64,000 bases of DNA from an uncultured Chloroflexia bacterium (lineage in GTDB: Bacteria > Chloroflexota > Chloroflexia > Thermomicrobiales > UBA6265). Under the pieces are notes generated by a model, which worked only from the letters and a program-made list of their open reading frames with translations, searched no databases and had not been told where the DNA came from. Below, piece after piece: positions 3,364 through 49,282 of this stretch. The DNA lies in assembly GCA_963741965.1 (NCBI GenBank), contig CAVUKC010000002.1:2345869-2409868 (forward strand), in the 5' to 3' direction. How positions within the stretch are numbered: the stretch's first letter is position 1; every line of letters begins with the position of its first letter. The position numbers and the translations under genes were made by a program.

Positions 3364-4686
3364 TCACGGAGCCACAGGCAGGGTGAAGCACACGGTCGTG
3401 CCCTCGCCGGGATCGCTCGCGAGGTGGATCTCGCCGTCCATCGCCTGCACCAGCGATCGCGCGATCGGCAGGCCCAGCCCGGTGCCGCCGGTATGGCGAG
3501 TGCGAGAGCGATCCGTCCGGTAGAAGCGGTCGAAGACGAACGGCTGGTCCGCCGGGTCGATGCCGGGGCCATGGTCCCGCACGCAGATCTCCACGTGCCT
3601 GTCGTGTTGCCGCGCCGAGACCGTCACCGTGTCGCCGCCGGTCGTGTACTTCACCGCGTTGTCGATCAGGATCCGCAGCACCTGCTCCACCAGCGCCGTG
3701 TTGGCGGTCGCGTGGACATGCTCGGGCGATTTCGAGACAAGCCTGACGCCAGCGGCCCTCGCCTGCGGATCCAGCGACCGGATCGTTGCGTCGATCGCCT
3801 TCGGTACGTCGACCCGCTCGAGCACCAGCTGGGTCGGGCCGTCGCCGTACTTCGCGAGCGCGAGGAGATCGTTGACGATGGCCGTCATGCGGTCGATCTC
3901 CTCCAGAATCCCCTTCATCTCAGTGCGGACCTCTTCCCGGGTGGGGTCTGGCAGGCGCTGCACCATTTCCGCGTTGGCGCGCAGCACGGTGAGCGGGGTG
4001 CGCAGCTCGTGGGAGGCGTCGGCGACGAAGGTGCGCTGGCGATTGAACGCCTCGTCGATCGGCCGCATGGCGCGCCGGGCGAGGAACAGACCGGTCGGCA
4101 GCGCGATCAGCGTGCCGAGCCCGATGCCGACCATGCTCGCCACGCCCACGAGGCGAAGCTCCGCGTCGTGCTGTCGCTCCGAGCGGGTCGCCTGGATCGC
4201 GCCGACCACCTCGCCGTGCTCCTCGACCGGCTCGGTGCGAACGCGGATGTCCTCGCCGTCGATCGTGACGGTGCGGGTGTCGTTCTCGCCGTCCAGCGCC
4301 TTCTGTACCGCCGGCATCACCGGGATGCCCTCAACCATCACGCCACGGTCGTTGTGGACCATGCCGCCGCTGGCGTCGAACACGAACAGCAGCGTGTCGC
4401 CGCTCTCGAGGATCTCGTGGCTTTCGTCGTCCTCGCCGTCGTTGTCGTCGTTCCCGCCCTCGTCCTCGCTCGCTGTCGGCTGGGGGGCGGGGGCGGCATT
4501 GCCCGCAGCCAGCTCCGGCTCCCAGACGATCCCGGCCGCCTTGATCCGATCCTCCAGCGCGGCGTCGGACTCCCGGATCAGGCTCTCGCGCAGCAGCAGC
4601 CAGGTGCCGCCGCCGACGATCGCGATCACGAGCACAACCACGGTGACGTTGAGGATGGCGAGCTTGCGGCTGACGGAGGCGAACAT
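3364..4686 (-). CDS. Sensor histidine kinase (2 TM, HAMP, HisKA, HATPase_c)
   Basis: ORF 3364..4686. H-box FVADASHELRTPLT; N, G1 and G2 boxes (IDNAVKYT, DHGPGI, GGTGLGL). The acidic periplasmic loop contains GGNDDNDGEDDESHE. Confidence 0.92.
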   Translation of the reverse strand: MFASVSRKLAILNVTVVVLVIAIVGGGTWLLLRESLIRESDAALEDRIKAAGIVWEPELAAGNAAPAPQPTASEDEGGNDDNDGEDDESHEILESGDTLLFVFDASGGMVHNDRGVMVEGIPVMPAVQKALDGENDTRTVTIDGEDIRVRTEPVEEHGEVVGAIQATRSERQHDAELRLVGVASMVGIGLGTLIALPTGLFLARRAMRPIDEAFNRQRTFVADASHELRTPLTVLRANAEMVQRLPDPTREEVRTEMKGILEEIDRMTAIVNDLLALAKYGDGPTQLVLERVDVPKAIDATIRSLDPQARAAGVRLVSKSPEHVHATANTALVEQVLRILIDNAVKYTTGGDTVTVSARQHDRHVEICVRDHGPGIDPADQPFVFDRFYRTDRSRTRHTGGTGLGLPIARSLVQAMDGEIHLASDPGEGTTVCFTLPVAP

Positions 4687-4693
4687 CGCGGCC

Positions 4694-5371
4694 CTACTTC
4701 CGGATCACGTAGCCGGCGCCGCGCACCGTCTCGATCACCGCCGGGGCGTCCGGGCAGGCCGCCGCGATCTTGCGCCGGATGTAGTGGACGTAGAGCTCGA
4801 CCACGTTGCCCTGCGGGTCGGCGTCGTAGCCCCAGACCTTCTCCAGCAGCTGGTCGCGGTCGAGAATCTGCCCGCGGTTGCGGACCAGCGTCTCCAGCAG
4901 GGTGTACTCCCGACGAGTGAGCGGAACCGTCGATGCGCCGCAGGTGACCTCCCCGCTGGCGAGGTCGATGTGGATCGGGCCGATCTCGATCACGTCCTCC
5001 AGCAGCGGCCGGTCGACGCGGCGGGTGAGCGCGCGCAGGCGAGCGATGAGCTCCTCGAAGGCGAATGGCTTGCCGAGGTAGTCGTCGGCACCGGCGTTGA
5101 GCCCCTCCACCCGCTCGTCCAGCTCGGTGCGGGCGGTCAGCATGAGCGTCGGCGTGGAGACCCGCGCCGCGCGCAGCTCCCGCAGCAGCTCGACGCCGTC
5201 GAGACCGGGCAGCATCCGGTCGAGGACGATCGCGTCGTAGCTGCCAGTCAGCGCGAGGTCGAGCCCGGCGTCGCCGTCGTGGGCGACGTCGACATCGAAC
5301 CGCTCCTGCGAGAGCACACGGGTCATGAGCTGGGCGAGGCGGACCTCGTCCTCGACGATGAGAATGCGCAT
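4694..5371 (-). CDS. OmpR-family response regulator
   Basis: MRILIVEDE...DAIVLDRMLPGLDG...LMLTA...KPF, followed by a winged-helix C-terminus (YVHYIRRKI...TVRGAGYV). It ends 7 nt upstream of the kinase start. Confidence 0.95.
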   Translation of the reverse strand: MRILIVEDEVRLAQLMTRVLSQERFDVDVAHDGDAGLDLALTGSYDAIVLDRMLPGLDGVELLRELRAARVSTPTLMLTARTELDERVEGLNAGADDYLGKPFAFEELIARLRALTRRVDRPLLEDVIEIGPIHIDLASGEVTCGASTVPLTRREYTLLETLVRNRGQILDRDQLLEKVWGYDADPQGNVVELYVHYIRRKIAAACPDAPAVIETVRGAGYVIRK

Positions 5372-5380
5372 GGATCCAGT

Positions 5381-9489: not shown

Positions 9490-10662
9490 CTACCAGTCCG
9501 TGACGGAGGCGTCGTCTCGGTGGAGGAGGCGCAGGTCCGGCGCCTGGTACGGCTGGGCGAGCGCGGCATCCTCGTCGAGCTCGACACCGAGCCCCGGCGA
9601 GCCGCCGCTGTAGAGGTTGCCGCCCTCCAGCCGCATGTCCGTCTTCACCACGTTTGCGATCACATCCGGCCGCCAGACCAGCTCCTGCACCGCGAACAGC
9701 GGCGTCGAGAGGTCGAAGTGCAGGCATGCCGCCGTCGACACCGGTCCGAGCGGGTTGTGCGGCGCCTGCTCGATGTAGTGCGTCTCGCACCACGCCGCCA
9801 CCTTCTTCGCCTCGGTGAGTCCGCCACAGATGCAGAGGTCGACGCGGCAGTAGTCCATCAGGTCCTGCTCGATCAGCGTCTGCCAGTCCCACTTGCTCGA
9901 CAGCTGCTCGCCGGTCGCGATCGGCGCCGAGATGTGCTGCCGCAGGTAGCCGAACAGCGAGGCGTTCTCGGCGCGGAGCGGGTCCTCGACGAAGAACGGG
10001 CGCATCGGCTCCAGCGCGCGGGCCATCTGGATCGCGTAGGTCGGCGTCGTGCGCTGGTGGAAGTCGACGCAGATCTCGATCTCCGGGCCGAGCGCCTCGC
10101 GCAGCGCCGCGAAGGCGTCGACCGTCCACTGCATCGCCTTCGCCTGCTCGTAGATGCCCTCGCGCTCGCCGCTGCTGCCCTCGCCGGCGCCGTAGCGGAC
10201 GAACTGCCAGCCCTCGGCAACCCGCTCCTTCGCGAGCGCGACCATGCTGTCGATGCCGGCCTGGCCGTCCGACCCGCCGCGCTGCTGCACGTGACAGTAG
10301 CAGCGGGCGTAGTCACGCGTCTTGCCGCCGAGCAGGTCGTAGACCGGCACCCCGAGCGCCTTGCCGCGGAGGTCCCACAGCGCGATGTCGATCGCCGCCA
10401 GCGCGCCCGCATGGACGTGCCCGCCGCGGAAGAACTGGCCGCGCCAGAGCGTCTGCCAGATGTGCTCGATGCGGCTCGGGTCCATGCCGATCAGGTGCGG
10501 CCGCCAGGTCTCGATCAGCCCGCTGATCGCCAGCTCCTTGCCGTTGATGCCGGACTCGCCAAGCCCGGTCACGCCCTCGTCGGTGTAGATCTTCACGAAG
10601 GTGAAGTTGCGGCCGCGCTCGGGCGCGTGGACGATGAACGTCCGGACGTCGGTGATCCTCAT
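9490..10662 (-). CDS. Enolase-superfamily enzyme, D-mannonate/galactonate-dehydratase-like (mandelate racemase / muconate lactonizing family)
   Basis: True start is MRITDVRTFIV, with GGAGGT upstream. AIDIALWDLRGKALGVPVYDLLGG, and the metal ligands in VDFH, EDP and TGE contexts. The N-terminal 118 aa of listed ORF 9490..11019 are non-coding read-through. Confidence 0.9.
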   Translation of the reverse strand: MRITDVRTFIVHAPERGRNFTFVKIYTDEGVTGLGESGINGKELAISGLIETWRPHLIGMDPSRIEHIWQTLWRGQFFRGGHVHAGALAAIDIALWDLRGKALGVPVYDLLGGKTRDYARCYCHVQQRGGSDGQAGIDSMVALAKERVAEGWQFVRYGAGEGSSGEREGIYEQAKAMQWTVDAFAALREALGPEIEICVDFHQRTTPTYAIQMARALEPMRPFFVEDPLRAENASLFGYLRQHISAPIATGEQLSSKWDWQTLIEQDLMDYCRVDLCICGGLTEAKKVAAWCETHYIEQAPHNPLGPVSTAACLHFDLSTPLFAVQELVWRPDVIANVVKTDMRLEGGNLYSGGSPGLGVELDEDAALAQPYQAPDLRLLHRDDASVTDW

Positions 10663-10852
10663 GGTGCGGCACCTCCGGTGCTGATGTCGGGGACGGCTGG
10701 TATGTGCCGCATTGTGTCGCCGGGGACAGAAGCGGTCAACGGCAGGCGGCGGACTTGACATCGCGGTGCGGGCGGGGTCGAATGCCGGCACCGGAAGCTG
10801 CGAGCCGCCTGAGCGCGGTGTCGCGTCCTCGCCTCGACACAAGGAGCTCATC

Positions 10853-12903: not shown

Positions 12904-13293
12904 CTAGTGGCCGTGCTCCGCGGCTTCGGCGGCGTCCGCTTCGGCCTTGGTCTTGTGCACGGTGCCGTCCGGGTGCTCGGGCGGGGAGTAGATCGTGTAG
13001 ACCTGCAGCGGCGTGTCGCTCGAGGTGTTGACGATGTTGTGCTCCGTGCCCTCCGGAATGATGACGATGTCGCCATCGGCCAGCCTGTGGTGCTCGCCGT
13101 TCAGGATCGCCTCGCCCTCTCCGGCTTCCACACGGAAGAATTGGTCGCCATGCTCGTGCGTCTCCGTGCCGATCTCCTCGCCCGGCTGCAGGGTCATCAG
13201 CACCAGCTGGAGGTTCGGCGCGGTGTAGAGCACCTTGCGGAAGTTGGTGTTCGCCAGCGTGTCCTTTTCGATGTTCGTCGTGTACCCGGCCAT
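12904..13293 (-). CDS. Cupin-domain protein
   Basis: Start at MAGYTTNIEKD. Cupin motifs GEEIGTETHEHGDQFFRVEAGEG and GDIVIIPEGTEHN. Confidence 0.85.
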   Translation of the reverse strand: MAGYTTNIEKDTLANTNFRKVLYTAPNLQLVLMTLQPGEEIGTETHEHGDQFFRVEAGEGEAILNGEHHRLADGDIVIIPEGTEHNIVNTSSDTPLQVYTIYSPPEHPDGTVHKTKAEADAAEAAEHGH

Positions 13294-13420
13294 GTGCGTG
13301 CCTTTCGTTGATGCGACATTCCCGTTCCATTGTTGCACCACGGTGGTACCGGGACGTGCAGCACGTTCCACAACGGACGGGTACGATATCCACATGCGAA
13401 AACCTGCCCGTACCTCAAGC

Positions 13421-14227
13421 ATGTCCGAACAGCGACGGTCACGGAAGAGAGGACCACGAGCGCGGTATGGGTACTACCTGCGGTCCGTGTGGTCACTGCT
13501 GGCGGGCTTCAGTCACCCGCTGCGGATCCTGCGCGTGTTCAGCCCGCTGCCGAGGAGCGGCGTCACCACCGTCCGGCTCCGGCGGACCGGCGTGAGTTTT
13601 CGCGTGCGCGGCGCCACCGACGTCTGGAGCGTCAAGGAGACCTGGCTCGACCGCTTCTACGAGCGGTACGGGTTCGTCATCGGGCCAGGCTGGGTGGTGG
13701 TCGACATCGGCGCCGGGATCGGTGAGTTCACCATTCTGGCAGCGCATGATGCCGCGCGGGTGGTCGCGTTCGAGCCCAGCCCGGCGTCGTTCGCGCTGCT
13801 GCGGGAGAACCTCGCGCTCAATGGGGTCACGAGCGTCGATGCCATCGAGGCGGCGGTCGGGGCGACCAGCGGGACGGTCTCGATCGACGTCGATGGCGAT
13901 CCGCTGACGGCGCGGAGCGGAACTGCCACTTCGGGCGGTGTGATGGTGCGGTCGTTCTCGCTGGCGGACGCGATGACGGAGGCGGGGATCGAGCGGGTCG
14001 ACCTGCTCAAGCTCGACTGCGAGGGCGCCGAGTACGACATCCTGCGCGGGGCGGGAAAGGATGTGCTGGCACGGGTCGAGCGGATCGTGATGGAGTACCA
14101 CGACCTCGACGACGCCCACGAGCGCGAGAGCCTGGTGCGGTCCCTGAAGGATGCCGGGTACGAGGTCGAGACATTCCCCAATCCGGTGCACACCTGGACC
14201 GGCTACCTGCGTGCCTGGCGAGCGTAG
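13421..14227 (+). CDS. FkbM-family SAM-dependent methyltransferase
   Basis: VVDIGAGIGEFT (SAM motif I), LLKLDCEGAEYDIL (FkbM signature). An alternative start lies at 13394. Confidence 0.85.
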   Translation: MSEQRRSRKRGPRARYGYYLRSVWSLLAGFSHPLRILRVFSPLPRSGVTTVRLRRTGVSFRVRGATDVWSVKETWLDRFYERYGFVIGPGWVVVDIGAGIGEFTILAAHDAARVVAFEPSPASFALLRENLALNGVTSVDAIEAAVGATSGTVSIDVDGDPLTARSGTATSGGVMVRSFSLADAMTEAGIERVDLLKLDCEGAEYDILRGAGKDVLARVERIVMEYHDLDDAHERESLVRSLKDAGYEVETFPNPVHTWTGYLRAWRA

Positions 14228-14301
14228 ACAGCGAACGTCCCTATCGCTATCAGGCTCCGCCAACCTGGCAATTCGACCGGCTCCCACGACGTGGGTGGAG
14301 T

Positions 14302-14352
14302 GGAGACATCGCGTCATCCCCGGCGCCGTGTCACAAACAACGCGATGTCTCC
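14302..14352 (+). promoter_or_regulatory. Perfect 12-bp inverted repeat (GGAGACATCGCG-N27-CGCGATGTCTCC) upstream of the heliorhodopsin gene
   Basis: Seen directly. It lies 75 nt after the FkbM stop and 83 nt before the heliorhodopsin ATG. It could be a terminator, an RNA structure or a dimeric operator. Confidence 0.35.
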
Positions 14353-14434
14353 ACGCGAGAGCCTGATGGTCGGGTTTGACAGGCCCAACTGGTACGATGG
14401 TGCTGAGGATTCCGATCGAGACAGGAGCACCGCC

Positions 14435-15229
14435 ATGGCGCAGCACGCAGGTACCGTCGACACCGCCGCCGATGTCGGGAATGCCGCCGGCAGTCTCCGC
14501 GTCTACAACCTCGTGATCGGGCTGATCCACCTCGCCCAGGCGATCGCCATGCTCTGGCTCAGCAACGACTTCACGCTGCCGGTCACGCGAACCTTCCTCA
14601 CCGGCCCGCCGGGCACCGCACCTTCGCAGGAGGCGTGGTTCGACGTGCGGCTCGGCCCGGCGGTGGCGGCGTTCCTGTTCATGGCGGCGATCGACCACCT
14701 GCTGATGGCCGCGCCGGGCGTGAACCGCTGGTACAACAGCATGCTGGCGCGGGAGCGTAACGATGCCCGCTGGATCGAGTACTCGGTGAGCGCGTCGCTG
14801 ATGATCGTGCTGATTGCGATGATCACCGGTGTCTCCGACATCGGCGCGCTGATCGCGATCGCCGGTGTCAACGCCTCGATGATCTTCTTCGGGCTGCTGC
14901 AGGAGGTCTTCACCAGCCCGAGCGACCGCCGCGTGAACTGGATGCCGTACATCTACGGCTGCTTCGCCGGGGCGGTGCCGTGGGCGATCGTGGCGCTGCA
15001 GGTCGCGTCTTCCGAGGATCGCGGCGCGGGTCCGCCGACCTTCGTCTACGGCATCATCGTCTCGCTCTTCCTGCTCTTCAACTCGTTCGCGGTCAACATG
15101 GTGCTGCAGTACAAGCGGGTGGGGCCGTGGCGGAGCTACGTCTATGGCGAGCGAGCGTACATCCTGGTCAGCCTGGTCGCCAAGTCGCTGCTGGCTTGGC
15201 AGGTGTTCGCGAACATCCTGATCGACTAG
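14435..15229 (+). CDS. Heliorhodopsin (7-TM retinal protein, inverted topology family)
   Basis: AGGAG lies 7 nt before the ATG at 14435. Blocks RWIEYSVSASLMIVLIA, GVNASMIFFGLLQE, FVYGIIVSLFLLFNSFA and GERAYILVSLVAKSLLAWQVF. Schiff-base Lys K250, Glu E115, His H32 and H88. Confidence 0.9.
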   Translation: MAQHAGTVDTAADVGNAAGSLRVYNLVIGLIHLAQAIAMLWLSNDFTLPVTRTFLTGPPGTAPSQEAWFDVRLGPAVAAFLFMAAIDHLLMAAPGVNRWYNSMLARERNDARWIEYSVSASLMIVLIAMITGVSDIGALIAIAGVNASMIFFGLLQEVFTSPSDRRVNWMPYIYGCFAGAVPWAIVALQVASSEDRGAGPPTFVYGIIVSLFLLFNSFAVNMVLQYKRVGPWRSYVYGERAYILVSLVAKSLLAWQVFANILID

Positions 15230-15370
15230 CCGCTCGCCAGTGGGTGGCGAATGGTTCTCGCGCCACCGATGTGCGAAGTGATTCACAGGATGGGGCCGTG
15301 ACGCCGTCGCGGTGCGTCTACCATGGGCGTGAGCGAGGCGGATTTGCATACAGGGAGGCAGCAGCGCGCT

Positions 15371-16312
15371 ATGGCGGTTCATACCCTCAGCCCGAGCCGG
15401 GAGTCGCTTCACGGGACGTTCTCTTCACGATGGCAGCCGGTGCTGACTATCGACTCAGGTGACTCTGTCGTCGTGGAGACGCTCGATGCCCGCTGGTCGA
15501 TCGAGGACCCGCAGGACGGCGTTCCCGGCAGGCGGTTCGAGCCACGAGACCCGGAGCGCGACAACGGCCACGCGCTCTGCGGACCGATCGCGATTCGTGG
15601 CGCGCAGTCCGGCATGACGCTCGCCGTGCGGATCGACGAGCTGGTGCCTGCTCGATGGGGCTGGACGGTTGCGGGCGGCTGGGACAATGGCATCAACGAG
15701 CGACTCGGGTTTGGTGAGGGCACCGACGACCTGCGCATGATGTGGGATCTCGATCTCGAAACGGGTGTCGGCACGAACCAGTTCGGGCACCGGGTGCGGC
15801 TCGCGCCGTTTTTCGGCGTGATGGGGATGCCGGGGAGCGATCCGGAGCCAGTGCCGTCGCGGCCGGCGCGGGTCAACGGCGGGAATATCGACTGCAAGGA
15901 GCTGACGGTCGGCGCGACGCTCTACCTGCCGATCGCGGTCGAGGGCGGACTCTTCTCGGTCGGCGACGGGCACGCGGCGCAGGGTGACGGCGAGGTGAGC
16001 AGCACGGCCATCGAGTGCCCGATGGCGTCGTCGCGCCTGACGCTGTCCCTGCGGGATGACCTGCCCCTCTCGACGCCGATCGCGCGGACACGGGACGCGT
16101 GGATCACCTTCGGGTTCGATGCCGACCTCAACGAGGCGACGCTGATCGCGCTGGAGGCGATGCTCGACCTGCTGGAGCGGGAGCGCGGGGTGACACGCCT
16201 GCAGGCGCTGGGACTGGCGAGCGTGGCGGTCGATTTCCGCGTGACGCAGATCGTCAACGGCGTGCGCGGCGTCCACGCGATCCTGCGCGACGACGCGGTC
16301 AGCTCTGGATGA
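15371..16312 (+). CDS. Acetamidase/formamidase-family amidohydrolase
   Basis: GPIAIRGAQSGMTLAV, GGNIDCKELTVGATLYLP, GDGHAAQGDGEV, all characteristic FmdA/AmdA blocks. Confidence 0.85.
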   Translation: MAVHTLSPSRESLHGTFSSRWQPVLTIDSGDSVVVETLDARWSIEDPQDGVPGRRFEPRDPERDNGHALCGPIAIRGAQSGMTLAVRIDELVPARWGWTVAGGWDNGINERLGFGEGTDDLRMMWDLDLETGVGTNQFGHRVRLAPFFGVMGMPGSDPEPVPSRPARVNGGNIDCKELTVGATLYLPIAVEGGLFSVGDGHAAQGDGEVSSTAIECPMASSRLTLSLRDDLPLSTPIARTRDAWITFGFDADLNEATLIALEAMLDLLERERGVTRLQALGLASVAVDFRVTQIVNGVRGVHAILRDDAVSSG

Positions 16313-16504: not shown

Positions 16505-17704
16505 TCAGCGCCAGGCGGTGGCGATCTTCCGGAACGCGGCGATCACCTGATCGAGGGTCTCGTCGTCAGCGAGCAGGAGTGTCTGCGGGAGCCAGACGGT
16601 CGTTTCGCCCGCTGCGTCGGCATGTGGGATCGGTCGCTCGGCGGCGTCCGCTCCGAAGCGATCGCGGATCGCCCGCTGGACAGCCTCGATGCGCGGCAGC
16701 GCGATGTAGCCCGCGCTTGCCGGGACGCCCTCGGCCTTGAGCGCCGCGAGGAACGCCGCGCGGTCCCGGTCGCCAAACGCCGCCGGGTCGTAGGTGAGCT
16801 GGTAGAGGTGCCATGCGCAGCGGTTGACGCGCTCGTCGATGCGCAGCGGCGTCAGACCGGGGATTTCCGCCAGCGCTTCGGTCAGGCGGGCGGCGGCGCG
16901 GTCGCGACGATCCATCTGCTCCGGCAGCCGCTCGAGCTGCGCGAGCAGGATCGCCGCCTGCCACTCGGTCATGCGCAGGTTCCGCCCGACCATCGCGTAG
17001 TCGAACATCCCGACACTCTCCGGCGTGCGGCCGGCGTTGTGGATCGACCAGACACGCCCGTGCAGCGTCGCGTCGTTGGTGACGACCGCGCCGCCCTCAC
17101 CGCCGGTGATGTTCTTGCTCTCCTGGAAGCTGAAGCAGCCGAGATCGCCGATGGTGCCGACGCCCTGTCCGTTCCATCGCGCGCCCCACGCCTGGCAGGC
17201 GTCCTCCAGCACGGGCAGCCCGGCACGGCGCGCGACGTCCATCACGCCGTCCATGTCCGACGGCAGCCCGCCGATGTGCACCGGCACGATCGCCTTCGTC
17301 CTCGGGGTGATCGCGGCCTCGATGCACGCCGGGTCGATGGTGTTGGTGGTCGGGTCGATGTCGACGAACACCGGCCGGGCGCCCATGGTGAGAATGGCGC
17401 TGGCGGTGGCGATGAAGGTCCACGCGCTGGTGATCACCTCGCCGCCGGCGCCGACCCCAAGCGCCTCCAGCGCGGCCTCGAGCGCGAGGGTGCCGCTTGG
17501 CGTGCAGACGGCGTGCTCGGCGCCCTGAAACGTGGCGAACTCGGTCTCGAAGCGCTCGACCTTGTCGCCGGTGATCGAGCCCCAGTGGCCGGAATCGAGC
17601 ACCTCGAGCAGCAGCTCGCGCTCGCGGTCGCCGTGGACGGGCCAGGCGGGCATGGTTCCGGTGACGGCTGGCGCGCCGCCGTCGATGGCGAGGGGGTCGG
17701 TCAT
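16505..17704 (-). CDS. DegT/DnrJ/EryC1/StrS-family PLP-dependent sugar aminotransferase
   Basis: Start at MTDPLAIDGG. TPSGTLALEAAL, FVDIDP.T, GCFSFQESKNITGGEGG (PLP lysine context). Confidence 0.9.
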   Translation of the reverse strand: MTDPLAIDGGAPAVTGTMPAWPVHGDRERELLLEVLDSGHWGSITGDKVERFETEFATFQGAEHAVCTPSGTLALEAALEALGVGAGGEVITSAWTFIATASAILTMGARPVFVDIDPTTNTIDPACIEAAITPRTKAIVPVHIGGLPSDMDGVMDVARRAGLPVLEDACQAWGARWNGQGVGTIGDLGCFSFQESKNITGGEGGAVVTNDATLHGRVWSIHNAGRTPESVGMFDYAMVGRNLRMTEWQAAILLAQLERLPEQMDRRDRAAARLTEALAEIPGLTPLRIDERVNRCAWHLYQLTYDPAAFGDRDRAAFLAALKAEGVPASAGYIALPRIEAVQRAIRDRFGADAAERPIPHADAAGETTVWLPQTLLLADDETLDQVIAAFRKIATAWR

Positions 17705-17765
17705 GGTCGCTCCGGTGCATGCTGCGAGATTTGTCACAGCGATCGTTGTGGCGCTACGCGACCAC

Positions 17766-20594: not shown

Positions 20595-21056
20595 TCAGGC
20601 CGTGGTCGCGTCAGTATCCGCTGGAGCGTCGGCTGCGTCCTGGAGACGCTCGCGTACTTCCGTCACCAGATCGTCGATGTCGAACGGCTTGAGCACGATG
20701 CCGACGCGCTTGATGCGGAGGTGGCCCTCGAGCTCGCGGGCGAGGTTGAGCGCGGCGGTGCAGACGATGGTCGGCACGCTGGCGGTGCGCCGGTCCATTT
20801 TCATCTTCTGGAGGAGCTGCCAGCCGTGACTTTCGCCGCCGATCATGAAGTCGAGAATCACCAGATCCGGCTGCAGGTTGACCAGGTCGTCCATCTCGTT
20901 GAACGCGAACGAGGAGAGCGAGACGCGGTATCCCTCATCCTCGAGAATCTCCTTGAAGAGGTCGAGGATCTCCTGCGTATCGTTGACCACGACAATGTGC
21001 GGCGCGGTGACGGGCTGGCCGCTGTGGTCATGGACGTGTTGTTCGGTCGTCGCCAT
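20595..21056 (-). CDS. Single-domain response regulator receiver (CheY-like)
   Basis: HIVVVNDTQEI, DLVILDFMIGG (phospho-acceptor Asp), VCTAA, KPF. No output domain. It lies 19 nt upstream of the oxidoreductase. Confidence 0.85.
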   Translation of the reverse strand: MATTEQHVHDHSGQPVTAPHIVVVNDTQEILDLFKEILEDEGYRVSLSSFAFNEMDDLVNLQPDLVILDFMIGGESHGWQLLQKMKMDRRTASVPTIVCTAALNLARELEGHLRIKRVGIVLKPFDIDDLVTEVRERLQDAADAPADTDATTA

Positions 21057-21173
21057 CGTGAATACGCCTCCTCATCGTCGGCCCGGACACGGAGGGTTGC
21101 GCGATGGTCGGGAGTGCTGACATACCCGCATACTCATGCGTGTGCGGGAACATTGTACCCTAGTCATGACACG

Positions 21174-33205: not shown

Positions 33206-33928
33206 ATGCGGATATTCAGGACCATCGTGCCGGCGCTGCTGGCGCTGGTCATGCTCGGCGGGGTGACGATACCTGCGCTCGCGCAGGATGAACCGACGCA
33301 GTTCGAGGATATGGACGGGTTGCAGAAGGCATACGCGCGCACGTTCCAGGCGGACGTGGCGGCGATGATGGAAACCGCGACCCCACAGGCCGGGCCGAGC
33401 GGGTGGTTCGCGCTCGTCGCCATGGTGCTGGAGTTCGACTCCGAGGATCATGCCGCCGCTGGTGTCGAGACGCTGATGCACGAGATCGAGCAATCCGGTT
33501 TCGCCGGCGAGAGCGGCGAGGCGCACGACGTTGAGCTCGACGTCGACATGGAGCACGTCGCCCGGGAGGCCGAGCAGACCGTGGAGGGGTTGACCACGAC
33601 CTCGGTGGTGGCGCTCGCCCGTGATGGCGCATACGTCTACGCCGTGGTGGGTGTCACCTTCGGGGATGACCCGGTGCCGCCGGTAACGTCGATGCTGACC
33701 GGTCTCGGTGACGCCGAAGCGAGCGATGACGAGGAGACGTTCCGCGAGGACGGCACCTCCGAGGGCGGTCTCTGGGCGAAGATGCCGGCGGCCGACGACG
33801 TGAGGGCCGAGGTGCCGGCGCTCGTCGAGGTGACCGACGAGACCCTCTACCCGGAGCTCTCGTCACCGGCGGTCAGCACGCCGGTGCGGGTGACGCGGCC
33901 CGTCATCGAGAGCACGCCGGCGGGGTAG
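33206..33928 (+). CDS. Secreted acidic protein of unknown function (paralog family member C)
   Basis: Signal peptide MRIFRTIVPALLALVMLGGVTIPALA|QDEPT. Motifs MVLEFDSEDHAAAG, DGAYVYAVVGVTFGDDP, DAEASDDEETFREDGTSEGGLWAKMPAADD. Confidence 0.6.
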   Translation: MRIFRTIVPALLALVMLGGVTIPALAQDEPTQFEDMDGLQKAYARTFQADVAAMMETATPQAGPSGWFALVAMVLEFDSEDHAAAGVETLMHEIEQSGFAGESGEAHDVELDVDMEHVAREAEQTVEGLTTTSVVALARDGAYVYAVVGVTFGDDPVPPVTSMLTGLGDAEASDDEETFREDGTSEGGLWAKMPAADDVRAEVPALVEVTDETLYPELSSPAVSTPVRVTRPVIESTPAG

Positions 33929-33997
33929 CGAGGCCTACCAGGAGTCCGGGAGTATCGACGTCGACAGCGCCGGGAGTGTTCGCTCCCGGCGCTGCTG

Positions 33998-34733
33998 TCA
34001 TGCGCGCGGGGTTCCGCCGGTCTCGATGTCGGCGGCAAAGTGGTCGGGGAGACCGTCTCGCGGCCCGTATCGCCGCGGCGGCCGAGGCGACGTCGTAGTC
34101 GACGCGCCGCATGGTGGCTCCGATGTCGGTCCGGCATGATCTCCAGCAACAGCCAGCCGGCGCGGGGATCGCCATCCTTCGGCTTGCCGACGCTGCCGGC
34201 GTTGATGAAGCGCACGCTCCCGATGGCGCGGTCCCACGGGATGTGCGTGTGGCCGAAGATGAGCACGTCGCATCGGCGACGCCGGCGATCCGCGCCAGCG
34301 AGCGCTCGTCGCGGTCCGCGAAGAGGTACTCGTTCATGCGGCGCGGGCTGCCGTGCACGAGCCGCAGGCGGTGCCCCTCGGTCTCCAGCCGGATCTCCGG
34401 CGCCAGTGTCCGCAGCCACGCCTTGCGCTCGGCATCGACGTGCGCGCGGGTCCACATCAGCGACTGCTGGCCGCGCTCCCGCTCATCGGCGTCCTTGTAG
34501 GCGCAGCCGCAGTCGTCCCGGTCGTAGCCGACGCCGTCGTCGTAGTTCCCCATGATCGTCGGGATGTCGCGCTCGCGGACGAGGTCGATCACCTCGTTCG
34601 GGCTTGCGCCGTAGCCGACGAGATCGCCGAGGCAGTACAGCGCGTCGACCTTACTGGCGTCGATGTCGGCCAGCACGGCGCGAAGCGCCTCGATGTTGCC
34701 ATGGATGTCGCCGAAGATCGCGATGCGGGTCAT
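33998..34733 (-). pseudogene. Metallophosphoesterase (YfcE/calcineurin-like) carrying three frameshifts
   Basis: Intact N-terminus MTRIAIFGDIHGN...LGDLVGYG...GNYD. The rest is split over three frames: CDVLIFGHTHIPWDRAIGSVRFINAGSVGKPKDGDPRAGWLLLEIMPD / TDIGATMRRVDYDVASAAAAIRAA / GLPDHFAADIETGGTPRA*. Shifts lie near 34270, 34130 and 34058. Confidence 0.8.
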
Positions 34734-35827
34734 GACGCTGCCCCCTGCGGCGCGAACAGGCGATTCCGGAGCCAGAGGGCGACGTAGACGAGCCCGATCA
34801 GGGCCGGGACCTCGATCAGTGGGCCGACGACGCCGGCGATTGCCTCACCCGAGCTGATCCCGAACACGCCGATGGCGACGGCGATCGCCAGCTCGAAGTT
34901 GTTGCCGGCGGCGGTGAAGGCAATCGCCGTCGTCTCCTCGTAGGAGAAGCCGAGCCGCCACGCCCAGGTGAAGGCGACGCCGAACATGATGCCGAAGTAG
35001 ACGAGCAGCGGCAGCGCGATGCGCAGCACGTCCATCGGCAGCTCGAGGATGCGGTCGCCCTGCATCGAGAACATGATCACGATGGTGTAGAGCAGGCCGA
35101 GCAGCGCCGTCGGGCCGATCTTCGTCAGGAAGCGGTTCTCGTACCAGTCGACACCGTTCCGGCGCACCAGCAGGTACCGGGTGAGCGCCCCGGCGACGAG
35201 CGGGATACCGAGGAAGATACCGACGTTGAGGGCGATGTCGCCCATCGAGACGTCCAGCGCGGTGGTGTCGGCGCCGAACCAGCCGGGCACAACGTTGAGG
35301 AAGAGCCAGCCGAGCACCGAGTACATCAGAATTTGGAAGAGGGAGTTGATCGCGACGAGGATGGCCGCGACCTCGCCGTCACCACAGGCAAGCTGGTTCC
35401 AGATCAGGACCATGGCGATGCAGCGCGCGAGTCCGATGAGGATGAGCCCGGTGCGGTAGTGCGGCTCATCCGGCAGGAACGCCCACGCCAGCGCGAACAT
35501 CAGCACGGGGCCGATCACCCAGTTGAGCGTGACGGAAAGCCCCATCAGCCTGCCGTTGGCCGCGAAGGAGCCGAGCTTGCCGTACTTCACCTTCGCGAGC
35601 ACGGGGTACATCATCCAGAAGAGGCCGATCGCGATCGGCACGGAGACCCCGGCGACCTTGACCCGATCGAGGTCCTCGCCGAGACCGGGGAAGAGGCGGC
35701 CGAGCACAATTCCGAGCGCCATCGCGGCGAAGATCCACAGCGGCAGGAAGCGATCGATCACGCCGAGTTGCGTGGAGCCCTCGCGCTGGCGCTCGACTGC
35801 GGTGGTGACGGGTGCGGATGCCGACAT
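34730..35827 (-). CDS. acr3: ACR3-family arsenite efflux permease
   Basis: FLPLWIFAAMALGI, LIGLARCIAMVLIWN (conserved Cys), FTAAGNNFELAIAVA, all hallmark ACR3 blocks. ATGA overlap with the downstream phosphoesterase. Confidence 0.92.
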   Translation of the reverse strand: MSASAPVTTAVERQREGSTQLGVIDRFLPLWIFAAMALGIVLGRLFPGLGEDLDRVKVAGVSVPIAIGLFWMMYPVLAKVKYGKLGSFAANGRLMGLSVTLNWVIGPVLMFALAWAFLPDEPHYRTGLILIGLARCIAMVLIWNQLACGDGEVAAILVAINSLFQILMYSVLGWLFLNVVPGWFGADTTALDVSMGDIALNVGIFLGIPLVAGALTRYLLVRRNGVDWYENRFLTKIGPTALLGLLYTIVIMFSMQGDRILELPMDVLRIALPLLVYFGIMFGVAFTWAWRLGFSYEETTAIAFTAAGNNFELAIAVAIGVFGISSGEAIAGVVGPLIEVPALIGLVYVALWLRNRLFAPQGAAS

Positions 35828-40969: not shown

Positions 40970-42541
40970 CTAGACGCGCTGCTCCTCCATGGCGTCCATC
41001 TTCGACATCTTCTCCATCTCGGCCATCTTCGCCTTGATGCCGTCGCGGACGCGGTTGGCGAGATCCTCATCGACCTGGGTGAAGTGCTCGAGCATCCGCT
41101 CCTGCAGCGGCTCGGGGCACTGCGAGAGACCGTTGGCGAGGTTCAGCACGAGGTCGTCGCGCTCCCAGTCCTCGAGGATGTTCCGGTAGTGATTGCCCGC
41201 CTGGCCGTAGTTGTTCGTCCGGTCGATCGGCGCCTTCACGACGTCGCCCTCGACATGCGGGCTGTAGAGCGTGTAGGAGTCATCCGCCTCGGAGAGACCG
41301 GCGAGGTAGGACGGCTCGTAGTTGACCGACTGGTCCGCACCCCGGTTGTCGACGCCATACGACATCTGCCCGCCCTCCTGGTTGGTGCGGGTCGGCGCCA
41401 CCGGGCGGTTGACCGGCAGCTGCAGGTAGTTCGGGCCGACGCGGTAGCGCTGGGTGTCGCTGTAGGAGAAGGTGCGACCAACCAGCATCTTGTCGTCGGA
41501 GAAGTCGAGGCCGTCCACCAGCACACCGGTGCCGAAGGCGATCTGCTCGTTTTCGTCGAACTGGTTCTCCGGGTTCTCGTTGAGCGTCATCATGCCGACC
41601 GGGAGCAGCGGGAACTGGTCCTCCGGCCAGGTCTTGGTGTCATCCAGCGGGTCGAAGTCCAGCTCCGGGTGATCGTCGTCGCTCATGATCTGGACGAAGA
41701 GCTCCCACTTCGGGTAGTCGCCGGCCTCGATCGCATCGTAGAGGTCCTTGGTGTGGCTGCCGAGCGTGTGCGACTGGACCTCGGCGGCCTGCGCCGCCGT
41801 GAGCGACTTGACGCCCTGCTGGCTCTTCCAGTGGTACTTGACGATGACGCCCTCGCCCTTCGCGTTCACCATGCGGTAGGTGTTGACGCCGAAGCCGTCC
41901 TGGTGGCGGTAGGTGGCCGGGATGCCGCGCGGCGAGAAGACCCACATCAGCATGTGCATCGCCTCGGGCGACTCGGCCCAGAAGTCGAACGCGCGCTGGG
42001 GCACATTGGCCTCGTTGGTGACCGGGTCGGGCTTCTGCGAGTGGATGAAGTCCGGGAACTTGATCGCGTCGCGGATGAAGAACACCGGCAGGTTGTTGCC
42101 GACGAGGTCCCAGTTGCCGTCCTCGGTGCGGAACTTGACGGCGAAGCCGCGCGGGTCACGGGCGACCTCGGAGGAGTCGCGCCCACCGGCGACGGTGGAG
42201 AAGCGGACCGTGACCGGGGTCTTCTTGCCCTTCTCCTGGAAGAGCCTGGCGCGGGTGTAGGTGCTGGCGGGCTCGTCACCGATGGTGCCGTAGGCCTCGA
42301 AGACGCCGTGGGCGATGGTGCCGCGGGCGTGGACCACGCGCTCGGGGATGCGCTCGCGGTCGAAGTGGCTGATCTTCTCGAGGAACTGGTAGTTCTCCAT
42401 CGTGGCGGGGCCGCGGCTGCCCACCGTGCGGAGATCCTGGTTGTTGTGGACCGGATGCCCCTGCCGGGTGGTCAGCACCGGCTTCTCCGCCTTTGCCTTG
42501 CCATTCAGTTTTCCGTTTGCCTTGCCGTCACTCATGTCCAT
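40970..42541 (-). CDS. katA: Monofunctional heme catalase (small-subunit type)
   Basis: [15 protein letters not shown] (distal His), [25 protein letters not shown] (proximal Tyr context). AAGGAG fits the second ATG (42535) better than the first (42541). Confidence 0.95.
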
Positions 42542-42645
42542 GCTCCTTCATGCGGGGTGCGGACAACCCATTCAACCGCGTGACCACGTCAGAATCGTGT
42601 GAGAATCAGGGGAGGTCAGGTGGGGGTGGGCATCAGCACCGCGTG

Positions 42646-42672
42646 TTATATGCACCCCCAATTGTATATGAA
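42646..42672. promoter_or_regulatory. AT-rich imperfect inverted repeat TTATATGCA-N9-TGTATATGAA in the catalase / nucleoside-hydrolase divergent region
   Basis: This is the only AT-rich patch in the 200-nt intergenic region. It could hold a -10 element or a Fur/PerR-type box. No exact consensus match was seen. Confidence 0.25.
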
Positions 42673-42741
42673 GTGCCGTGGCGGTGTACGACCACGCGAG
42701 AGCGGTCAGGCATGCCGTGAATCTCCGTTCAGGCAGCAAGT

Positions 42742-43689
42742 GTGGAGGTAGCCATCGTGAGTGACGAGCGGTTTTCGGTGATGCTCGATACCGACATCGG
42801 TACCGATGTTGACGACTGTCTCGCGCTGGCGGTGCTGCTGGGCTCGCCGGAGATCGACCTCGCCGGGGTCACGACCGTCTACGGCGACGTCGCGCTGCGT
42901 GCGCGAATGATCCGCAAGCTGCTGCACCTTGCGGGACGCGGTGACGTGCCGGTGCACGAGGGCATCCGGGAGCCGCTGATGCGCAACCGGCCGGTGTTCT
43001 GGCCGGGGCATGAGGGCGTGGGGCTGCTGGAGCAGGGCGACGAGGAACGGTTCGGGCAGGGACCGGACCAGCACGCCGTGGATTTCCTGATCGAGCGGGT
43101 GATGGGCGCACCCGGGACGATCCATCTGCTCGCGGTCGGGCCGCTGACCAATGTCGCGGCGGCGATGATCCGCGAGCCGGAGCTGGCGCGCAATCTGGCG
43201 CAGCTGACGATCATGGGCGGGCTCATCGCCACGTGGACGAGCGGGCACGGCCCGGTGGAGCACAACATCCGGTGCGACCCCGAGGCGGCGCGAGTGGTGT
43301 TTGCCTCTGGCGCGCCGATCTCGCTGGTGCCGCTGGACGTGACCTTGAAGACGGTGATCACGAGGGAGGATGTCGCGGCGATCCGGGCGGTCGGCACACC
43401 CTTCCATGACGCGGTGGCGGAACAGGTCGCGCTCTACCCGCCGTTCGAGGAGCGCGGCGGGCAGACCTTCCTGCACGACCCGCTGGCGGCTGCCGCGCTC
43501 GTCCGGCCCGATCTGCTGGAGTGGCACGATCTGGAGGTCGATGTCGAGCTGGCGGGTCGGCTGACGACCGGGATGACGGTCGCGCGGCAGCCGGGGCAGG
43601 AGGTGCCGGCGACGGCGAGGGTCGCGATGGCCGTCGATGCCGTGGCTGCCGAGCGGTTCATCATCGAGCGGATCCGCGCCCACACCTGA
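42742..43689 (+). CDS. Inosine/uridine-preferring nucleoside hydrolase family protein
   Basis: VMLDTDIGTDVDDCLALAVLL (DxDxxxDD fingerprint). Start is ambiguous (GTG at 42742 or 42757). Confidence 0.9.
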   Translation: MEVAIVSDERFSVMLDTDIGTDVDDCLALAVLLGSPEIDLAGVTTVYGDVALRARMIRKLLHLAGRGDVPVHEGIREPLMRNRPVFWPGHEGVGLLEQGDEERFGQGPDQHAVDFLIERVMGAPGTIHLLAVGPLTNVAAAMIREPELARNLAQLTIMGGLIATWTSGHGPVEHNIRCDPEAARVVFASGAPISLVPLDVTLKTVITREDVAAIRAVGTPFHDAVAEQVALYPPFEERGGQTFLHDPLAAAALVRPDLLEWHDLEVDVELAGRLTTGMTVARQPGQEVPATARVAMAVDAVAAERFIIERIRAHT

Positions 43690-43791
43690 TCGCTTCATGG
43701 CATGGGCGGAATTGACAGGAAACCCTCGTAGCCGTCATGCTGCCGCGGAGTTCCATTGATTGTGGCGTAATTTCTTCGGGTGTGGGGGGAC

Positions 43792-44907
43792 ATGACGGTG
43801 GGAGCAACGGGACGGGTATCGCGACGTCACGCGATCGGCGCGGGGATCGGGGTGGCGGGCGCGTTGGCGATGAGCCGGGTAACCGCACAGGGGGCGACCC
43901 CGGTCGCATCGCCGGTGGCCGAGCTGCGTGTGCGGCGCAACGCGAGGGATCTCAGCGCGGATGAGAAGCGGGCGTTCACGGACGCGATTCTGGCGCTCAA
44001 GGCGAAGCCATCGCCGTGGGACGACCGTGTCAGCACCTACGACCAGTTCGTGACCTGGCATCGTGATGCCTTCCACTGCGACCTGATGGCGGCGCACATG
44101 GGCCCGGCGTTCTTTCCGTGGCACCGGCAGTTCCTGCGACTGTTCGAGCAGCAGCTGCGCGAGGTCGACCCGAGTGTGACGCTGCCGTACTGGGACTGGA
44201 CGGTCGACAACACCACGGACGCCTACATCTGGCAGGACGACTTCATGGGCGGCTCCGGCGATCCGAGCCAGGATCACGCCGTCATCGACGGGCCGTTTCG
44301 CAAGGGCGCGTGGGAGATCACCGTTTTCGACGAGGCGGACGACGAGCGGATGCCGTTCCTGGTCCGCGATCTCGGCAGCGGCAAGCTGGCGCCGGACCTG
44401 CCGACGGCGGCGCAGCTGGAGGAGGCGCTGGCGATCCCGAACTACGACGCCGCGCCATGGAACGAGCTGGCGGACCCGGCCGACAGCTTCCGGAACTTCC
44501 TCGAGGGCTGGCGCGACTGTGTGCCGCAGGACTGCTACGCGGACCCGACGAAGCACCCGGATTGCCCGGGCGACCACATGATGCACAACCGGGTGCACCT
44601 GTGGGTGTCCGGCGAGTTCATCTTCGCGCATCAGGGGGCGCATCAGCAGGAGCCGGAGCCGCTGGGGACCATGGCGATGAACGCCTCGCCGAATGACCCG
44701 GTGTTCTTCCTGCACCACGCCAATATCGACCGCTTGTGGACCGAGTGGATGCGGCGGCACGGGAGGGTGTTCGCGCCGGAGTCCGGGGCGATGCACGGGC
44801 ACAACCTGAACGATGCGATGTGGCCGTACTCGGAGATCGGGATGACGGTGACGCCGGCGATGATGCTCGACAGCGTCGCGCTCGGGTACGTCTACGACAC
44901 GGACTGA
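43792..44907 (+). CDS. Tyrosinase / type-3 copper polyphenol oxidase with its own Tat signal peptide
   Basis: VSRRHAIGAGIGVAGALAMSRVTA. CuA His in WHRDAFH...FFPWHRQF, CuB His in HNRVHLWV...FFLHHANIDRLW. Confidence 0.9.
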   Translation: MTVGATGRVSRRHAIGAGIGVAGALAMSRVTAQGATPVASPVAELRVRRNARDLSADEKRAFTDAILALKAKPSPWDDRVSTYDQFVTWHRDAFHCDLMAAHMGPAFFPWHRQFLRLFEQQLREVDPSVTLPYWDWTVDNTTDAYIWQDDFMGGSGDPSQDHAVIDGPFRKGAWEITVFDEADDERMPFLVRDLGSGKLAPDLPTAAQLEEALAIPNYDAAPWNELADPADSFRNFLEGWRDCVPQDCYADPTKHPDCPGDHMMHNRVHLWVSGEFIFAHQGAHQQEPEPLGTMAMNASPNDPVFFLHHANIDRLWTEWMRRHGRVFAPESGAMHGHNLNDAMWPYSEIGMTVTPAMMLDSVALGYVYDTD

Positions 44908-45013
44908 CCGGGTACAGCATCTGCTCGCCCGCGCGACCGGAAACTTCCGGCGCGGGAACGAGCGCGAGGGCAAGAGGAACGACGTGTGAGTGTTCGTCAT
45001 GCCGCATCCAGTT

Positions 45014-45214
45014 CGTAGGGGCGGATTCCGCAGGATATCCGCCCGGTGGTCGCGCAGCGGCCACGATGATTCCCACGAATCGATTCTGCCCTGCGGACAG
45101 GCGCTTCGCGCGGGGACCCTTCGACAAGCTCAGGGTGACGTTGCGGTGGGGTGAACTCGCTGTTCTGCCTTCAGCTCCTGCAGCGAAAACGGGCGGATAC
45201 GGGGTCCGCCCCTA
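45014..45214. repeat. Composite REP-like intergenic repeat bounded by two hairpin modules in inverted orientation
   Basis: GTAGGGGCGGATTCCGCAGGATATCCGCCC at 45014-45044, the internal ctgccctgcggacaggcgcttcgcgcggggacccttcgacaagctcagggtgac, and GGGCGGATACGGGGTCCGCCCCTA at 45191-45214 (reverse orientation). Confidence 0.7.
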
Positions 45215-45228
45215 TGGATTGGTTAATG

Positions 45229-45780
45229 CTACGAGCGGTTCTTGTTGCCCCAGGTGCCGTAGCTGACGAGCTCCTCGAGCGGCTTGCGGCCGGGCTTCGG
45301 GCCGGTCGGGCGCGGGTCCTTCGATGTCTTGTAGGGGCCGACCACCATGACGGAGTGGAGCACCATCTCCTGCGGGATGCCGAGGATGTCCTTGGCGACG
45401 CCCTCGTTCTCGGCGAACCACGCGGTGCCGGCACCGATGCCGAGCATCTCGGCGGCGATCATGATGCGCTCGCTGACGCGGCCCTCGTCGTAGGCCTCGT
45501 GGACCTCGTTCTCGCCGGGGAAGACGAGCGCGATCGCGAGCGCGCCGTCGGCGACCCAGGTGATGTTCGGGCGCAGGTCGGAGAGCTTCTTGAGGACATC
45601 CTTGTCCTCGACGACAACGAAGCGCCACGGCTGGGTGTTGCGCGAGCTGCCGGACCAGCGGGCGATCTCGAGGATCTGGTTGAGATCGTCGTCGCTGACG
45701 GCGCCGGGCTCGTACTGGCGGACCTGCCGGACCTTGCGGATGGCCTCGAGAGCGCTGGCGGTGCTGGTGACATCGGGCAT
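45229..45780 (-). CDS. Nitroreductase-family protein
   Basis: GAGGAG RBS. Start MPDVTSTASALEAIRKVRQVRQY. SSRNTQPWRFVVV (FMN-binding signature). Listed ORF 45229..46710 is an artefactual extension. Confidence 0.85.
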   Translation of the reverse strand: MPDVTSTASALEAIRKVRQVRQYEPGAVSDDDLNQILEIARWSGSSRNTQPWRFVVVEDKDVLKKLSDLRPNITWVADGALAIALVFPGENEVHEAYDEGRVSERIMIAAEMLGIGAGTAWFAENEGVAKDILGIPQEMVLHSVMVVGPYKTSKDPRPTGPKPGRKPLEELVSYGTWGNKNRS

Positions 45781-45884
45781 GGGGCTTCTCCTCGTGTCGC
45801 GTTTCGAACGTGCCTGTGTCGGCATCATAGCGTCATGAGACAGGACGGCAAAATCCTGGCCACCGGTTTGTGACCCTCGATTCG

Positions 45885-48594: not shown

Positions 48595-48855
48595 GGTCGG
48601 GCTGCGCTCCGCCGGGTAAGCGTGGTCGATGGGTCGTGTTCCATGACCGTACCGCAAACGTACATGTAGGGCCAGCGCGGGAGCGGCGCCGCCTGATGAT
48701 CCATTGGGGCCACCTGGGTCAGGCCCATGCAATCACCGCCGTGCCAGAGGGGCGGCGCCGGCACGCCACGTGGCTCCTCACGTGCCCGTCTGCCGAGGTA
48801 GAGCTTCACCTGGGTGGGGAGAGTTGGTTCACCACAGCTGAAGAGGAGCGACATG

Positions 48856-49200: not shown

Positions 49201-49230
49201 TGCGCGTGGATACCGTCCCCTCAGTTGGAA

Positions 49231-49274: not shown

Positions 49275-49282
49275 AGCGGACG

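Follow-up and report, generated by a model that had tools for sequence, protein, structure and literature searches.

The window analysed here, a stretch of DNA of 64 kb, carries on its plus strand (positions 14435-15229) a gene whose product can be regarded, with near certainty, as a heliorhodopsin (HeR). As an explanation of the locus as a whole, to which a probability of about 0.7 is assigned, it is proposed that this gene encodes a functional HeR of the Thermomicrobiales, which acts as a slow-cycling light sensor and regulates a partner protein encoded elsewhere.

The coding sequence starts with ATG, ends with TAG and encodes 264 amino acids, exactly where an earlier reading of this DNA, made from the sequence only, had placed a complete heliorhodopsin gene. 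The deduced protein matched the Pfam family PF18761 (Heliorhodopsin) along the entire profile (1-242 of 242) with a score of 328.7 bits, the cutoff being 26.7, and it scored 314.5 bits with the NCBIfam equivalog NF038020 ('heliorhodopsin HeR'), for which the cutoff is 100; the profile-HMM search which the sequence-only reading had suggested thus gave scores far above both cutoffs. Among proteins of solved structure, the best matches found by HMMER were the 48C12 entries 9LJJ, 6SU3 and 6UH3 (E ~2e-69), followed by TaHeR 6IS6 (E 5e-60); aligned to 48C12 over 243 positions, the deduced protein shows 50% identity. The four sequence blocks of 48C12 cited in the sequence-only reading occur letter for letter in the PDB sequence of 48C12.

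Seven hydrophobic segments were found in the sequence, and an AlphaFold2 model (pLDDT 78.2), for which 32 aligned clade members served as input, contains seven long helices and, in the AB loop, a beta-hairpin of residues 47-72 (strands 47-54 and 64-72). When this model was compared to the PDB with Foldseek, the ten best matches were all heliorhodopsins (TM 0.75-0.84), and type-1 rhodopsins followed far lower, with E-values of 1e-4 or worse and 9-17% identity. Membership in the type-1 rhodopsins was also considered and rejected, as no match to PF01036 was found at E <= 0.01 and the positions of D85 and D212 of bacteriorhodopsin (bR) are occupied by Glu and Ser. Lysine and arginine residues are distributed unevenly, 11 in the loops on the N-terminal side versus 3 on the opposite side, which, according to the positive-inside rule, fits a predicted topology with the N-terminus in the cytoplasm, as in the rest of the family. 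Curated HMMs, homology to solved structures, the predicted fold and the mapping of residues all agree, and the initial assignment of the product to seven-transmembrane heliorhodopsins is upheld.

In the HMMER alignment to the 48C12 chains of the PDB, residues H32 (codon at 14528-14530), H88 (14696-14698), E115 (14777-14779) and K250 (15182-15184), all encoded on the plus strand, fall on H23, H80, E107 and K241, respectively. The same correspondence had been drawn without any database, and the position given there for the codon of K250 is correct. Neither K250, the putative retinal Schiff-base lysine, nor E115, its predicted counterion, is displaced from the equivalent position of 48C12, and both are invariant, together with H32, H88 and S246, in the alignment of the 32 clade members. 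The pattern of a single glutamate counterion is seen in E115, in S246 (S237 in 48C12), a serine where type-1 rhodopsins have their second carboxylate, and in S119 (S111), with A84 in place of the stabilising S76. The polar set of the Schiff-base cavity (H32, H88, N25, Y100, N109, R112, Y116, E157 and E239) is identical to that of 48C12, where N25 and Y100 correspond to N16 and Y92. K250 is part of helix 7 and E115 of helix 3, and S246, S119, H32, H88, N109, R112, Y116, E157 and E239 surround the Schiff-base cavity as they do in 48C12.

Altogether, 35 of the 42 structurally important residues of 48C12 named in PMC7049168 are identical in the window HeR. Six are substituted, namely S76->A84, S112->A120, I170->A180, Q213->M222, L227->V236 and Y179 of the 48C12 dimer interface, the last of which falls in a gap. 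A84 and M222 are invariant among the 32 clade members, A120 and A180 nearly so; Met at position 213 of 48C12 is a frequent variant (PMC7049168). Since two residues which contact the counterion or the retinal in 48C12 are replaced (S76->A84 and Q213->M222), spectral and kinetic details may differ from those of 48C12.

The regulatory mechanism proposed for the window HeR is drawn by analogy with characterised members of the family and is, taken by itself, held with moderate confidence. All-trans retinal would form a protonated Schiff base with K250, E115 serving as the counterion, and would be isomerised by green light. The proton would then shift only inside the protein, toward the cluster of histidines and water, without net transport, and the photocycle would be slow (seconds), as is characteristic of the family. 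A long-lived photointermediate might change the cytoplasmic surface of the protein and, in this way, modulate a partner protein by direct contact. Such control by actinobacterial HeRs has been demonstrated with three partners, which are glutamine synthetase (PMC9529153), a photolyase (PMC9769723) and an exporter of the ABC type (PMC11109279). The partner of the window HeR is probably encoded elsewhere, because no partner gene is linked to it in cis, and the retinal may be the product of genes at another place in the genome or be acquired from the surroundings.

It is also possible, though rather doubtful, that the protein carries two chromophores, retinal and an externally acquired xanthophyll, the latter serving as a light-harvesting antenna at a lateral fenestration that opens between helices E and F; this arrangement is compatible with the sensor model. 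Xanthophyll binding of this kind has been proposed for most HeRs, and the motif put forward for the carotenoid site (bioRxiv 10.1101/2025.11.27.691015) calls, in 48C12 numbering, for an aromatic residue at both 162 and 206, a small one at both 166 and 210, G169 and N207; the window HeR fits it at six positions of six (Y172, C176, G179, F215, N216 and A219). Moreover, the fenestration of 48C12 is narrowed by I170 (PMC7049168), a residue replaced in the window HeR by the smaller A180, and the lack of carotenoid genes nearby suits an antenna of external origin. However, the same motif occurs in 91.3% of HeRs (bioRxiv 10.1101/2025.11.27.691015) and so does not distinguish the window HeR, and the proposal comes from a preprint that argues from structures, from motifs in the sequence and from docking, and in which the binding of carotenoids to HeR was not demonstrated.

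The window HeR is an ordinary, already catalogued member of its family, from a lineage known to carry HeRs. The exact protein is already present in NCBI and ENA, and 7,357 database proteins match it at E <= 1e-20. The best 120 of these 7,357 are 66-100% identical to it; the named entries among them belong to Thermomicrobiales, Chloroflexota and soil metagenomes, and several are labelled 'heliorhodopsin HeR'. A scan of one genome per species yielded 22 HeR loci, with 65-88% identity in MAGs of Thermomicrobiales, Chloroflexia and Sphaerobacteraceae, and 48-58% in MAGs of Dehalococcoidales and actinobacteria. Plasmid collections contained only two distant HeRs (42-43% identity), both annotated as 'heR: heliorhodopsin HeR', and no match was found in phage collections. 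The labelled entries, even those on plasmids, indicate that the gene is recognised by routine annotation. Within the collection of papers searched, none mentions heliorhodopsin together with Thermomicrobiales. What novelty is left is confined to the clade-specific pair A84/M222 in the pocket, in addition to the question of partner and retinal source, which is common to most HeRs. The coherent HeR clade of soil-type Thermomicrobiales, with invariant A84 and M222, could be sampled for spectral or kinetic diversity, and, as the physiology of HeRs is understood only in part, every HeR from an organism amenable to experiments may be worth studying. The locus itself yields no new clue to HeR function, and its importance beyond correct annotation is slight.

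The HeR gene is preceded by a gene of an FkbM-domain methyltransferase (13235-14227, plus strand; PF05050, 72.7 bits), which probably starts at ATG 13421, and followed by a gene of the acetamidase/formamidase family (FmdA_AmdA; 15323-16312, plus strand; PF03069, 100.3 bits), with a likely start at ATG 15371. Farther downstream, a DegT/DnrJ/EryC1 aminotransferase is encoded on the minus strand (16505-17737; PF01041, 361.8 bits). The names of all three, as first proposed, were confirmed by Pfam, and the spacer between the FkbM stop (14227) and the HeR gene measures 207 nt, as stated there. The spacer of 141 nt originally given between HeR and the formamidase holds if the latter starts at ATG 15371, which is preceded by GGGAGG (15353-15358), and shrinks to 93 nt with ATG 15323 as the start. 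More distant genes of the window encode two enzymes of the MR_MLE enolase superfamily, a xylose-isomerase-like TIM barrel protein, a cupin, a P-loop kinase-like protein and a DAO oxidoreductase, as predicted with Pfam. An SDR is located 5 kb from HeR, whereas the distance to an alpha/beta hydrolase and to ABC-2 transporters exceeds 30 kb.

The Pfam scan included 59 ORFs covering the whole 64-kb window, 12 of which had no Pfam match, so that a novel enzyme is possible among them. Within this scope, no gene was found for polyprenyl or phytoene synthase, phytoene desaturase, lycopene cyclase, Blh (BCD), an RPE65-type oxygenase or a type-1 rhodopsin, in agreement with the sequence-only reading, which had noticed no crtE/B/I/Y or blh-type genes in the window. 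The same scan revealed no photolyase, glutamine synthetase, MerR, TerC, DegV or DUF2177 in the 59 ORFs. [quoted passage not shown] Searches with Rfam (at the gathering threshold) and ARAGORN detected no RNA element in the 64 kb.

The neighbourhood was compared among 26 related loci, namely 22 genome loci, which were searched by tblastn with 20 genes of the window, and four long contigs, which were searched with Pfam. Neither FkbM nor FmdA was found beside HeR in any of the 26, several of which encode HeRs 77-88% identical to that of the window and include the downstream sequence. DegT homologues are located divergently upstream of HeR in two loci (L003 and L005), with a P-loop gene downstream of HeR in L003, and a cluster of MR_MLE and TIM-barrel genes of the sugar-acid type lies upstream of HeR in L001 only. 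These three loci are the closest relatives, with HeRs of 83-84% identity. Since the side of the DegT/P-loop pair on which HeR is found differs between the window and L003, the recurrence of DegT and of the MR_MLE cluster looks like residual, eroding synteny with local rearrangement, and not like an operon.

The long contigs (L023-L026) carry HeRs 71-82% identical to that of the window, and the neighbours there are entirely different: a CN_hydrolase (upstream, divergent) and an acetyltransferase in L023, an alpha/beta hydrolase and LacI in L024, an aminoacyl-tRNA synthetase (tRNA-synt_2 family) and an SMR exporter in L025, and S15 peptidases in L026. Ten further ORFs flanking HeR were assigned to SH3/glucosaminidase, molybdopterin oxidoreductase, PNPOx/F420H2-quinone reductase, SMR, glyoxalase, GFO_IDH_MocA, and S8 and S15 peptidases. 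In the related loci HeR is usually set apart from its neighbours.

A functional module of FkbM, HeR, FmdA and DegT was considered and rejected, as FkbM and FmdA never recur in the loci compared, and DegT (L003, L005) and the MR_MLE/TIM-barrel cluster (L001) do so only in the closest relatives; this is also the outcome of the co-occurrence comparison of FkbM, formamidase and DegT genes which the sequence-only reading had proposed. A mobile cassette was likewise rejected: no direct or inverted repeats bracket HeR, and a 15-bp hairpin upstream of it, described below, is single-copy in the window and absent as a conserved element in relatives.

Not being conserved, the neighbours in the window point to no partner. 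According to the survey of Chazan et al. (bioRxiv 10.1101/2021.02.16.431466), blh is rare near HeR genes, its genome-wide co-occurrence with them is mostly found where another rhodopsin is present, and DegV and DUF2177 are the only characteristic HeR neighbours. Of 448 helR genes, only 38.6% were predicted to share a promoter with a neighbour (Cho et al., PMC11109279). A solitary HeR without retinal genes is the expected case, because published surveys show the same. The expectation that each new genomic context would be informative is thus not borne out by this locus, where the context is not conserved and a solitary HeR without blh follows the published norm.

A bolder proposal, which can be given only a slim chance, is that HeRs of the Thermomicrobiales type form a distinct functional subgroup. 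They would be distinguished by the invariant Ala at the S76 position, by the counterion, and the invariant Met at the Q213 position, by the beta-ionone ring, and would always be solitary, with a neighbourhood that differs in almost every genome. Such proteins might act on a lineage-specific partner encoded in trans, possibly in nitrogen or amide metabolism, as FmdA might hint, or might depend wholly on retinal or xanthophyll scavenged by these soil bacteria.

It is very unlikely that HeR regulates the FmdA/AmdA amidase encoded downstream, placing the release of ammonia under the control of light by analogy with the pair of HeR and glutamine synthetase. [quoted passage not shown] However, that gene has a divergent orientation and its family is unrelated to FmdA, and the absence of an FmdA homologue from all 26 related loci, including those with highly similar HeRs and sequenced downstream regions, speaks against a link between the two.

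The genes of FkbM, HeR and FmdA are all on the plus strand, and a consensus scan found neither a sigma-70 promoter nor a plus-strand terminator. The repeat search revealed a perfect 15-bp inverted repeat in the spacer between FkbM and HeR (14300-14354, plus strand), with the arms GTGGAGACATCGCGT and ACGCGATGTCTCCAC separated by a loop of 25 nt; it occurs once in the window, and the spacer folds better than its shuffled versions (z = -2.3). The only terminator-like site of the consensus scan lies inside this hairpin, on the minus strand. The hairpin is a candidate for a terminator of FkbM that has no U-tract or for a structure of the 5'-UTR. A TTGACA hexamer resembling a -35 element (14376-14381, plus strand) is located 54 nt upstream of the HeR start codon, with no good -10 element at a distance of 16-18 nt, and constitutes weak evidence.

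On the other side of the gene, 14 nt after the HeR stop codon, a G+C-rich hairpin of 7 bp (GGUGGCG / CGCCACC; 15243-15267, plus strand), also without a U-tract, is a weak candidate for a terminator, and the region downstream of the stop is no more structured than shuffled sequences (z = +0.65). Neither of the two hairpins is conserved in relatives. Several relatives carry strong hairpins of their own flanking HeR. A search for k-mers with one mismatch in 16 upstream regions, compared with shuffled sequences, found no shared motif beyond the Shine-Dalgarno sequence. Judging from the sequence, HeR is likely to be transcribed as a monocistronic unit. Its transcriptional isolation, claimed in the sequence-only reading, is no more than plausible: the hairpin at 14300-14354 is the sole positive sign of a boundary, while the same-strand arrangement and the lack of a recognisable promoter or plus-strand terminator do not speak for it.

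A Shine-Dalgarno-like AGGAG (14423-14427, plus strand), read from the sequence, is located 7 nt upstream of the HeR start codon, and GGAG-type motifs occupy the same position before the equivalent start in orthologous loci. The start at 14435 is also backed by comparison, as close homologues are mostly 264 aa long and are aligned over 100% of the query, and in-frame stops occur shortly upstream of the equivalent ATG in orthologous loci, at a distance of 6 nt in L001. A longer reading frame from the in-frame GTG at 14291 was rejected, as the lengths of homologues, the stops in orthologues and the conserved ribosome-binding site favour 14435.

By the measures of sequence evolution, the HeR gene is native and maintained under purifying selection, because its dN/dS amounts to 0.21-0.30 in comparison with six orthologues and its GC content at the three codon positions (0.61/0.47/0.88) resembles that of the rest of the window and is typical of its genes. 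That the gene is decaying, or encodes an orphan apoprotein with neither chromophore supply nor function, is accordingly very improbable. The lack of a retinal pathway among the Pfam-scanned genes of the 64 kb might be taken as a sign of decay, and the HeR orthologue of L001 contains an in-frame TGA; the latter, however, may be a sequencing error, the coverage of that contig being ~1x. Against decay stand the intact ORF with all key residues kept, the low dN/dS and the persistence of the gene across many Thermomicrobiales MAGs. Genomes with HeRs commonly lack blh (bioRxiv 10.1101/2021.02.16.431466), which points to another source of retinal.

Least probable of all is a role in proton transport, driven or gated by light, as in the viral V2HeR3, a member of the same family from HeR subfamily 2: proton transport was shown for this viral protein (PMC9448325), but viral subfamily-2 HeRs are marked by Glu at the position of 48C12 L202, have lost P172 as well as N138, and carry His at 162/166 (PMC7049168), whereas the window HeR possesses residues of the subfamily-1 type (L211 at the L202 position, P182 for P172, N146 for N138, and Y172 and C176 at 162/166), and ion transport is not expected because the diagnostic subfamily-2 residues are absent.

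Among the known systems, the window HeR is most similar to 48C12, which was found on a freshwater actinobacterial fosmid (PDB 6SU3, 6SU4, 6UH3 and 9LJJ) and has the same fold (TM 0.78-0.84). Residues K241, E107, H23, H80, S237, S111, N101, R104, Y108, E149, E230, P172, W173 and N138 of 48C12 are all kept, and the cluster of Q26, S242 and W246 is conserved as well. The two proteins differ in their hosts, Actinobacteria versus Chloroflexota, and in Y179 of 48C12, which has no counterpart in the window HeR. TaHeR of a Thermoplasmatales archaeon (PDB 6IS6, 7U55 and 7CLJ) belongs to the same family and shares the fold (TM 0.78-0.82), but it is archaeal and more distant than 48C12, with ~40% identity in the structural alignment.

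For the function, the closest models are AbHeR with glutamine synthetase, TfHeR with photolyase and OcHeR with the OmrDE ABC exporter, members of the same family that modulate a partner through contact, by way of a photoproduct with a long lifetime. These HeRs are encoded in operons with their partners, whereas the window HeR has no gene of a partner group next to it and its neighbourhood is not conserved; the arrangement of operon-linked regulatory HeRs, an adjacent partner on the same strand under one promoter, was not found at this locus. Sensory rhodopsin II with its transducer HtrII is more remote, as the window HeR does not match PF01036, shares only 11-13% identity with it, has the opposite predicted orientation in the membrane, is accompanied by no transducer gene and resembles it only distantly in fold (TM ~0.6), but the principle is analogous: a slow-cycling retinal protein signals via a partner.

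Signal-transduction genes were found on both sides of the heliorhodopsin (HeR) gene of the window (14435-15229, plus strand): a histidine kinase (HisKA/HATPase) together with an OmpR-type response regulator (3367-5380, minus strand), located 9 kb upstream, and a lone receiver-domain protein (20598-21071, minus strand), located 5.4 kb downstream. Bulzu et al. (PMC8612252) noted histidine-kinase components at distances of up to 10 kb from HeR, and in one related locus, L004, a response-regulator homologue (41% identical) is encoded approximately 1.1 kb downstream of the HeR gene. The proximity of the two-component genes to HeR in the window is probably coincidental. An oxidative-stress and pigment-type cluster, encoding a catalase (557 bits), a nucleoside hydrolase, a tyrosinase-domain protein and a nitroreductase, occupies positions 40973-45900; it lies 26-30 kb from HeR, and no link between the two was established.

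Among the relatives, an SMR (Multi_Drug_Res) gene is located directly downstream of HeR and convergent to it in two loci (L009, 2630-3019, and L025, 7862-8191, both on the minus strand of their contigs), while PNPOx/F420H2-dependent quinone reductase-like genes adjoin HeR in L007 (4621-5157, plus strand) and L008 (1465-1983, minus strand). These recurrences are small, two loci each, and both kinds of gene are absent from the 64-kb window.

A calcineurin-like metallophosphoesterase gene of the window (33847-34844, minus strand) appears to be frameshifted: its N-terminal half (GDIHGN...) is read in the frame 33903-34844, where the Pfam match spans residues 40-172 only, and its C-terminal half (GHTHIPW...GWLLLEI) is read in another frame, 33847-34482. 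The split points to a pseudogene or, alternatively, to an error in sequencing. A stretch of 1.6 kb (48732-50373), flanked by an ABC-2 transporter operon (minus strand) and an ECF sigma factor gene (plus strand), has a G+C content of 55-57%, compared with 67% for the window. No convincing ORF with high GC3 was found within it, its two longest ORFs gave no match in Pfam, and searches for Rfam families and tRNAs gave no match either. This stretch may be of foreign origin, or it may be what is left of a decayed element.

The closest orthologue in the genome collection (L001, 6363-7154; 84% identity) carries an in-frame TGA within the HeR gene. Since the coverage of this contig is about 1x, the stop may have arisen in assembly, in which case the gene would not be a pseudogene. 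The MAG JBGTNF01 (Thermomicrobiales isolate JTS-RE381) contains two distinct HeR genes (L002, 240-1037, and L008, 346-1149), whose products share 80% and 76% identity, respectively, with the window protein, suggesting paralogues of one genome or a mixed bin. A more distant HeR, 54% identical to the query, is encoded at 10001-10759 of locus L015, on a 480-kb contig in a MAG labelled 'uncultured Alphaproteobacteria' (69% G+C). If the label is right, L015 would be a case of HeR in a diderm host, although HeRs have been reported to be confined to monoderms; the MAG may instead be a misclassified bin.
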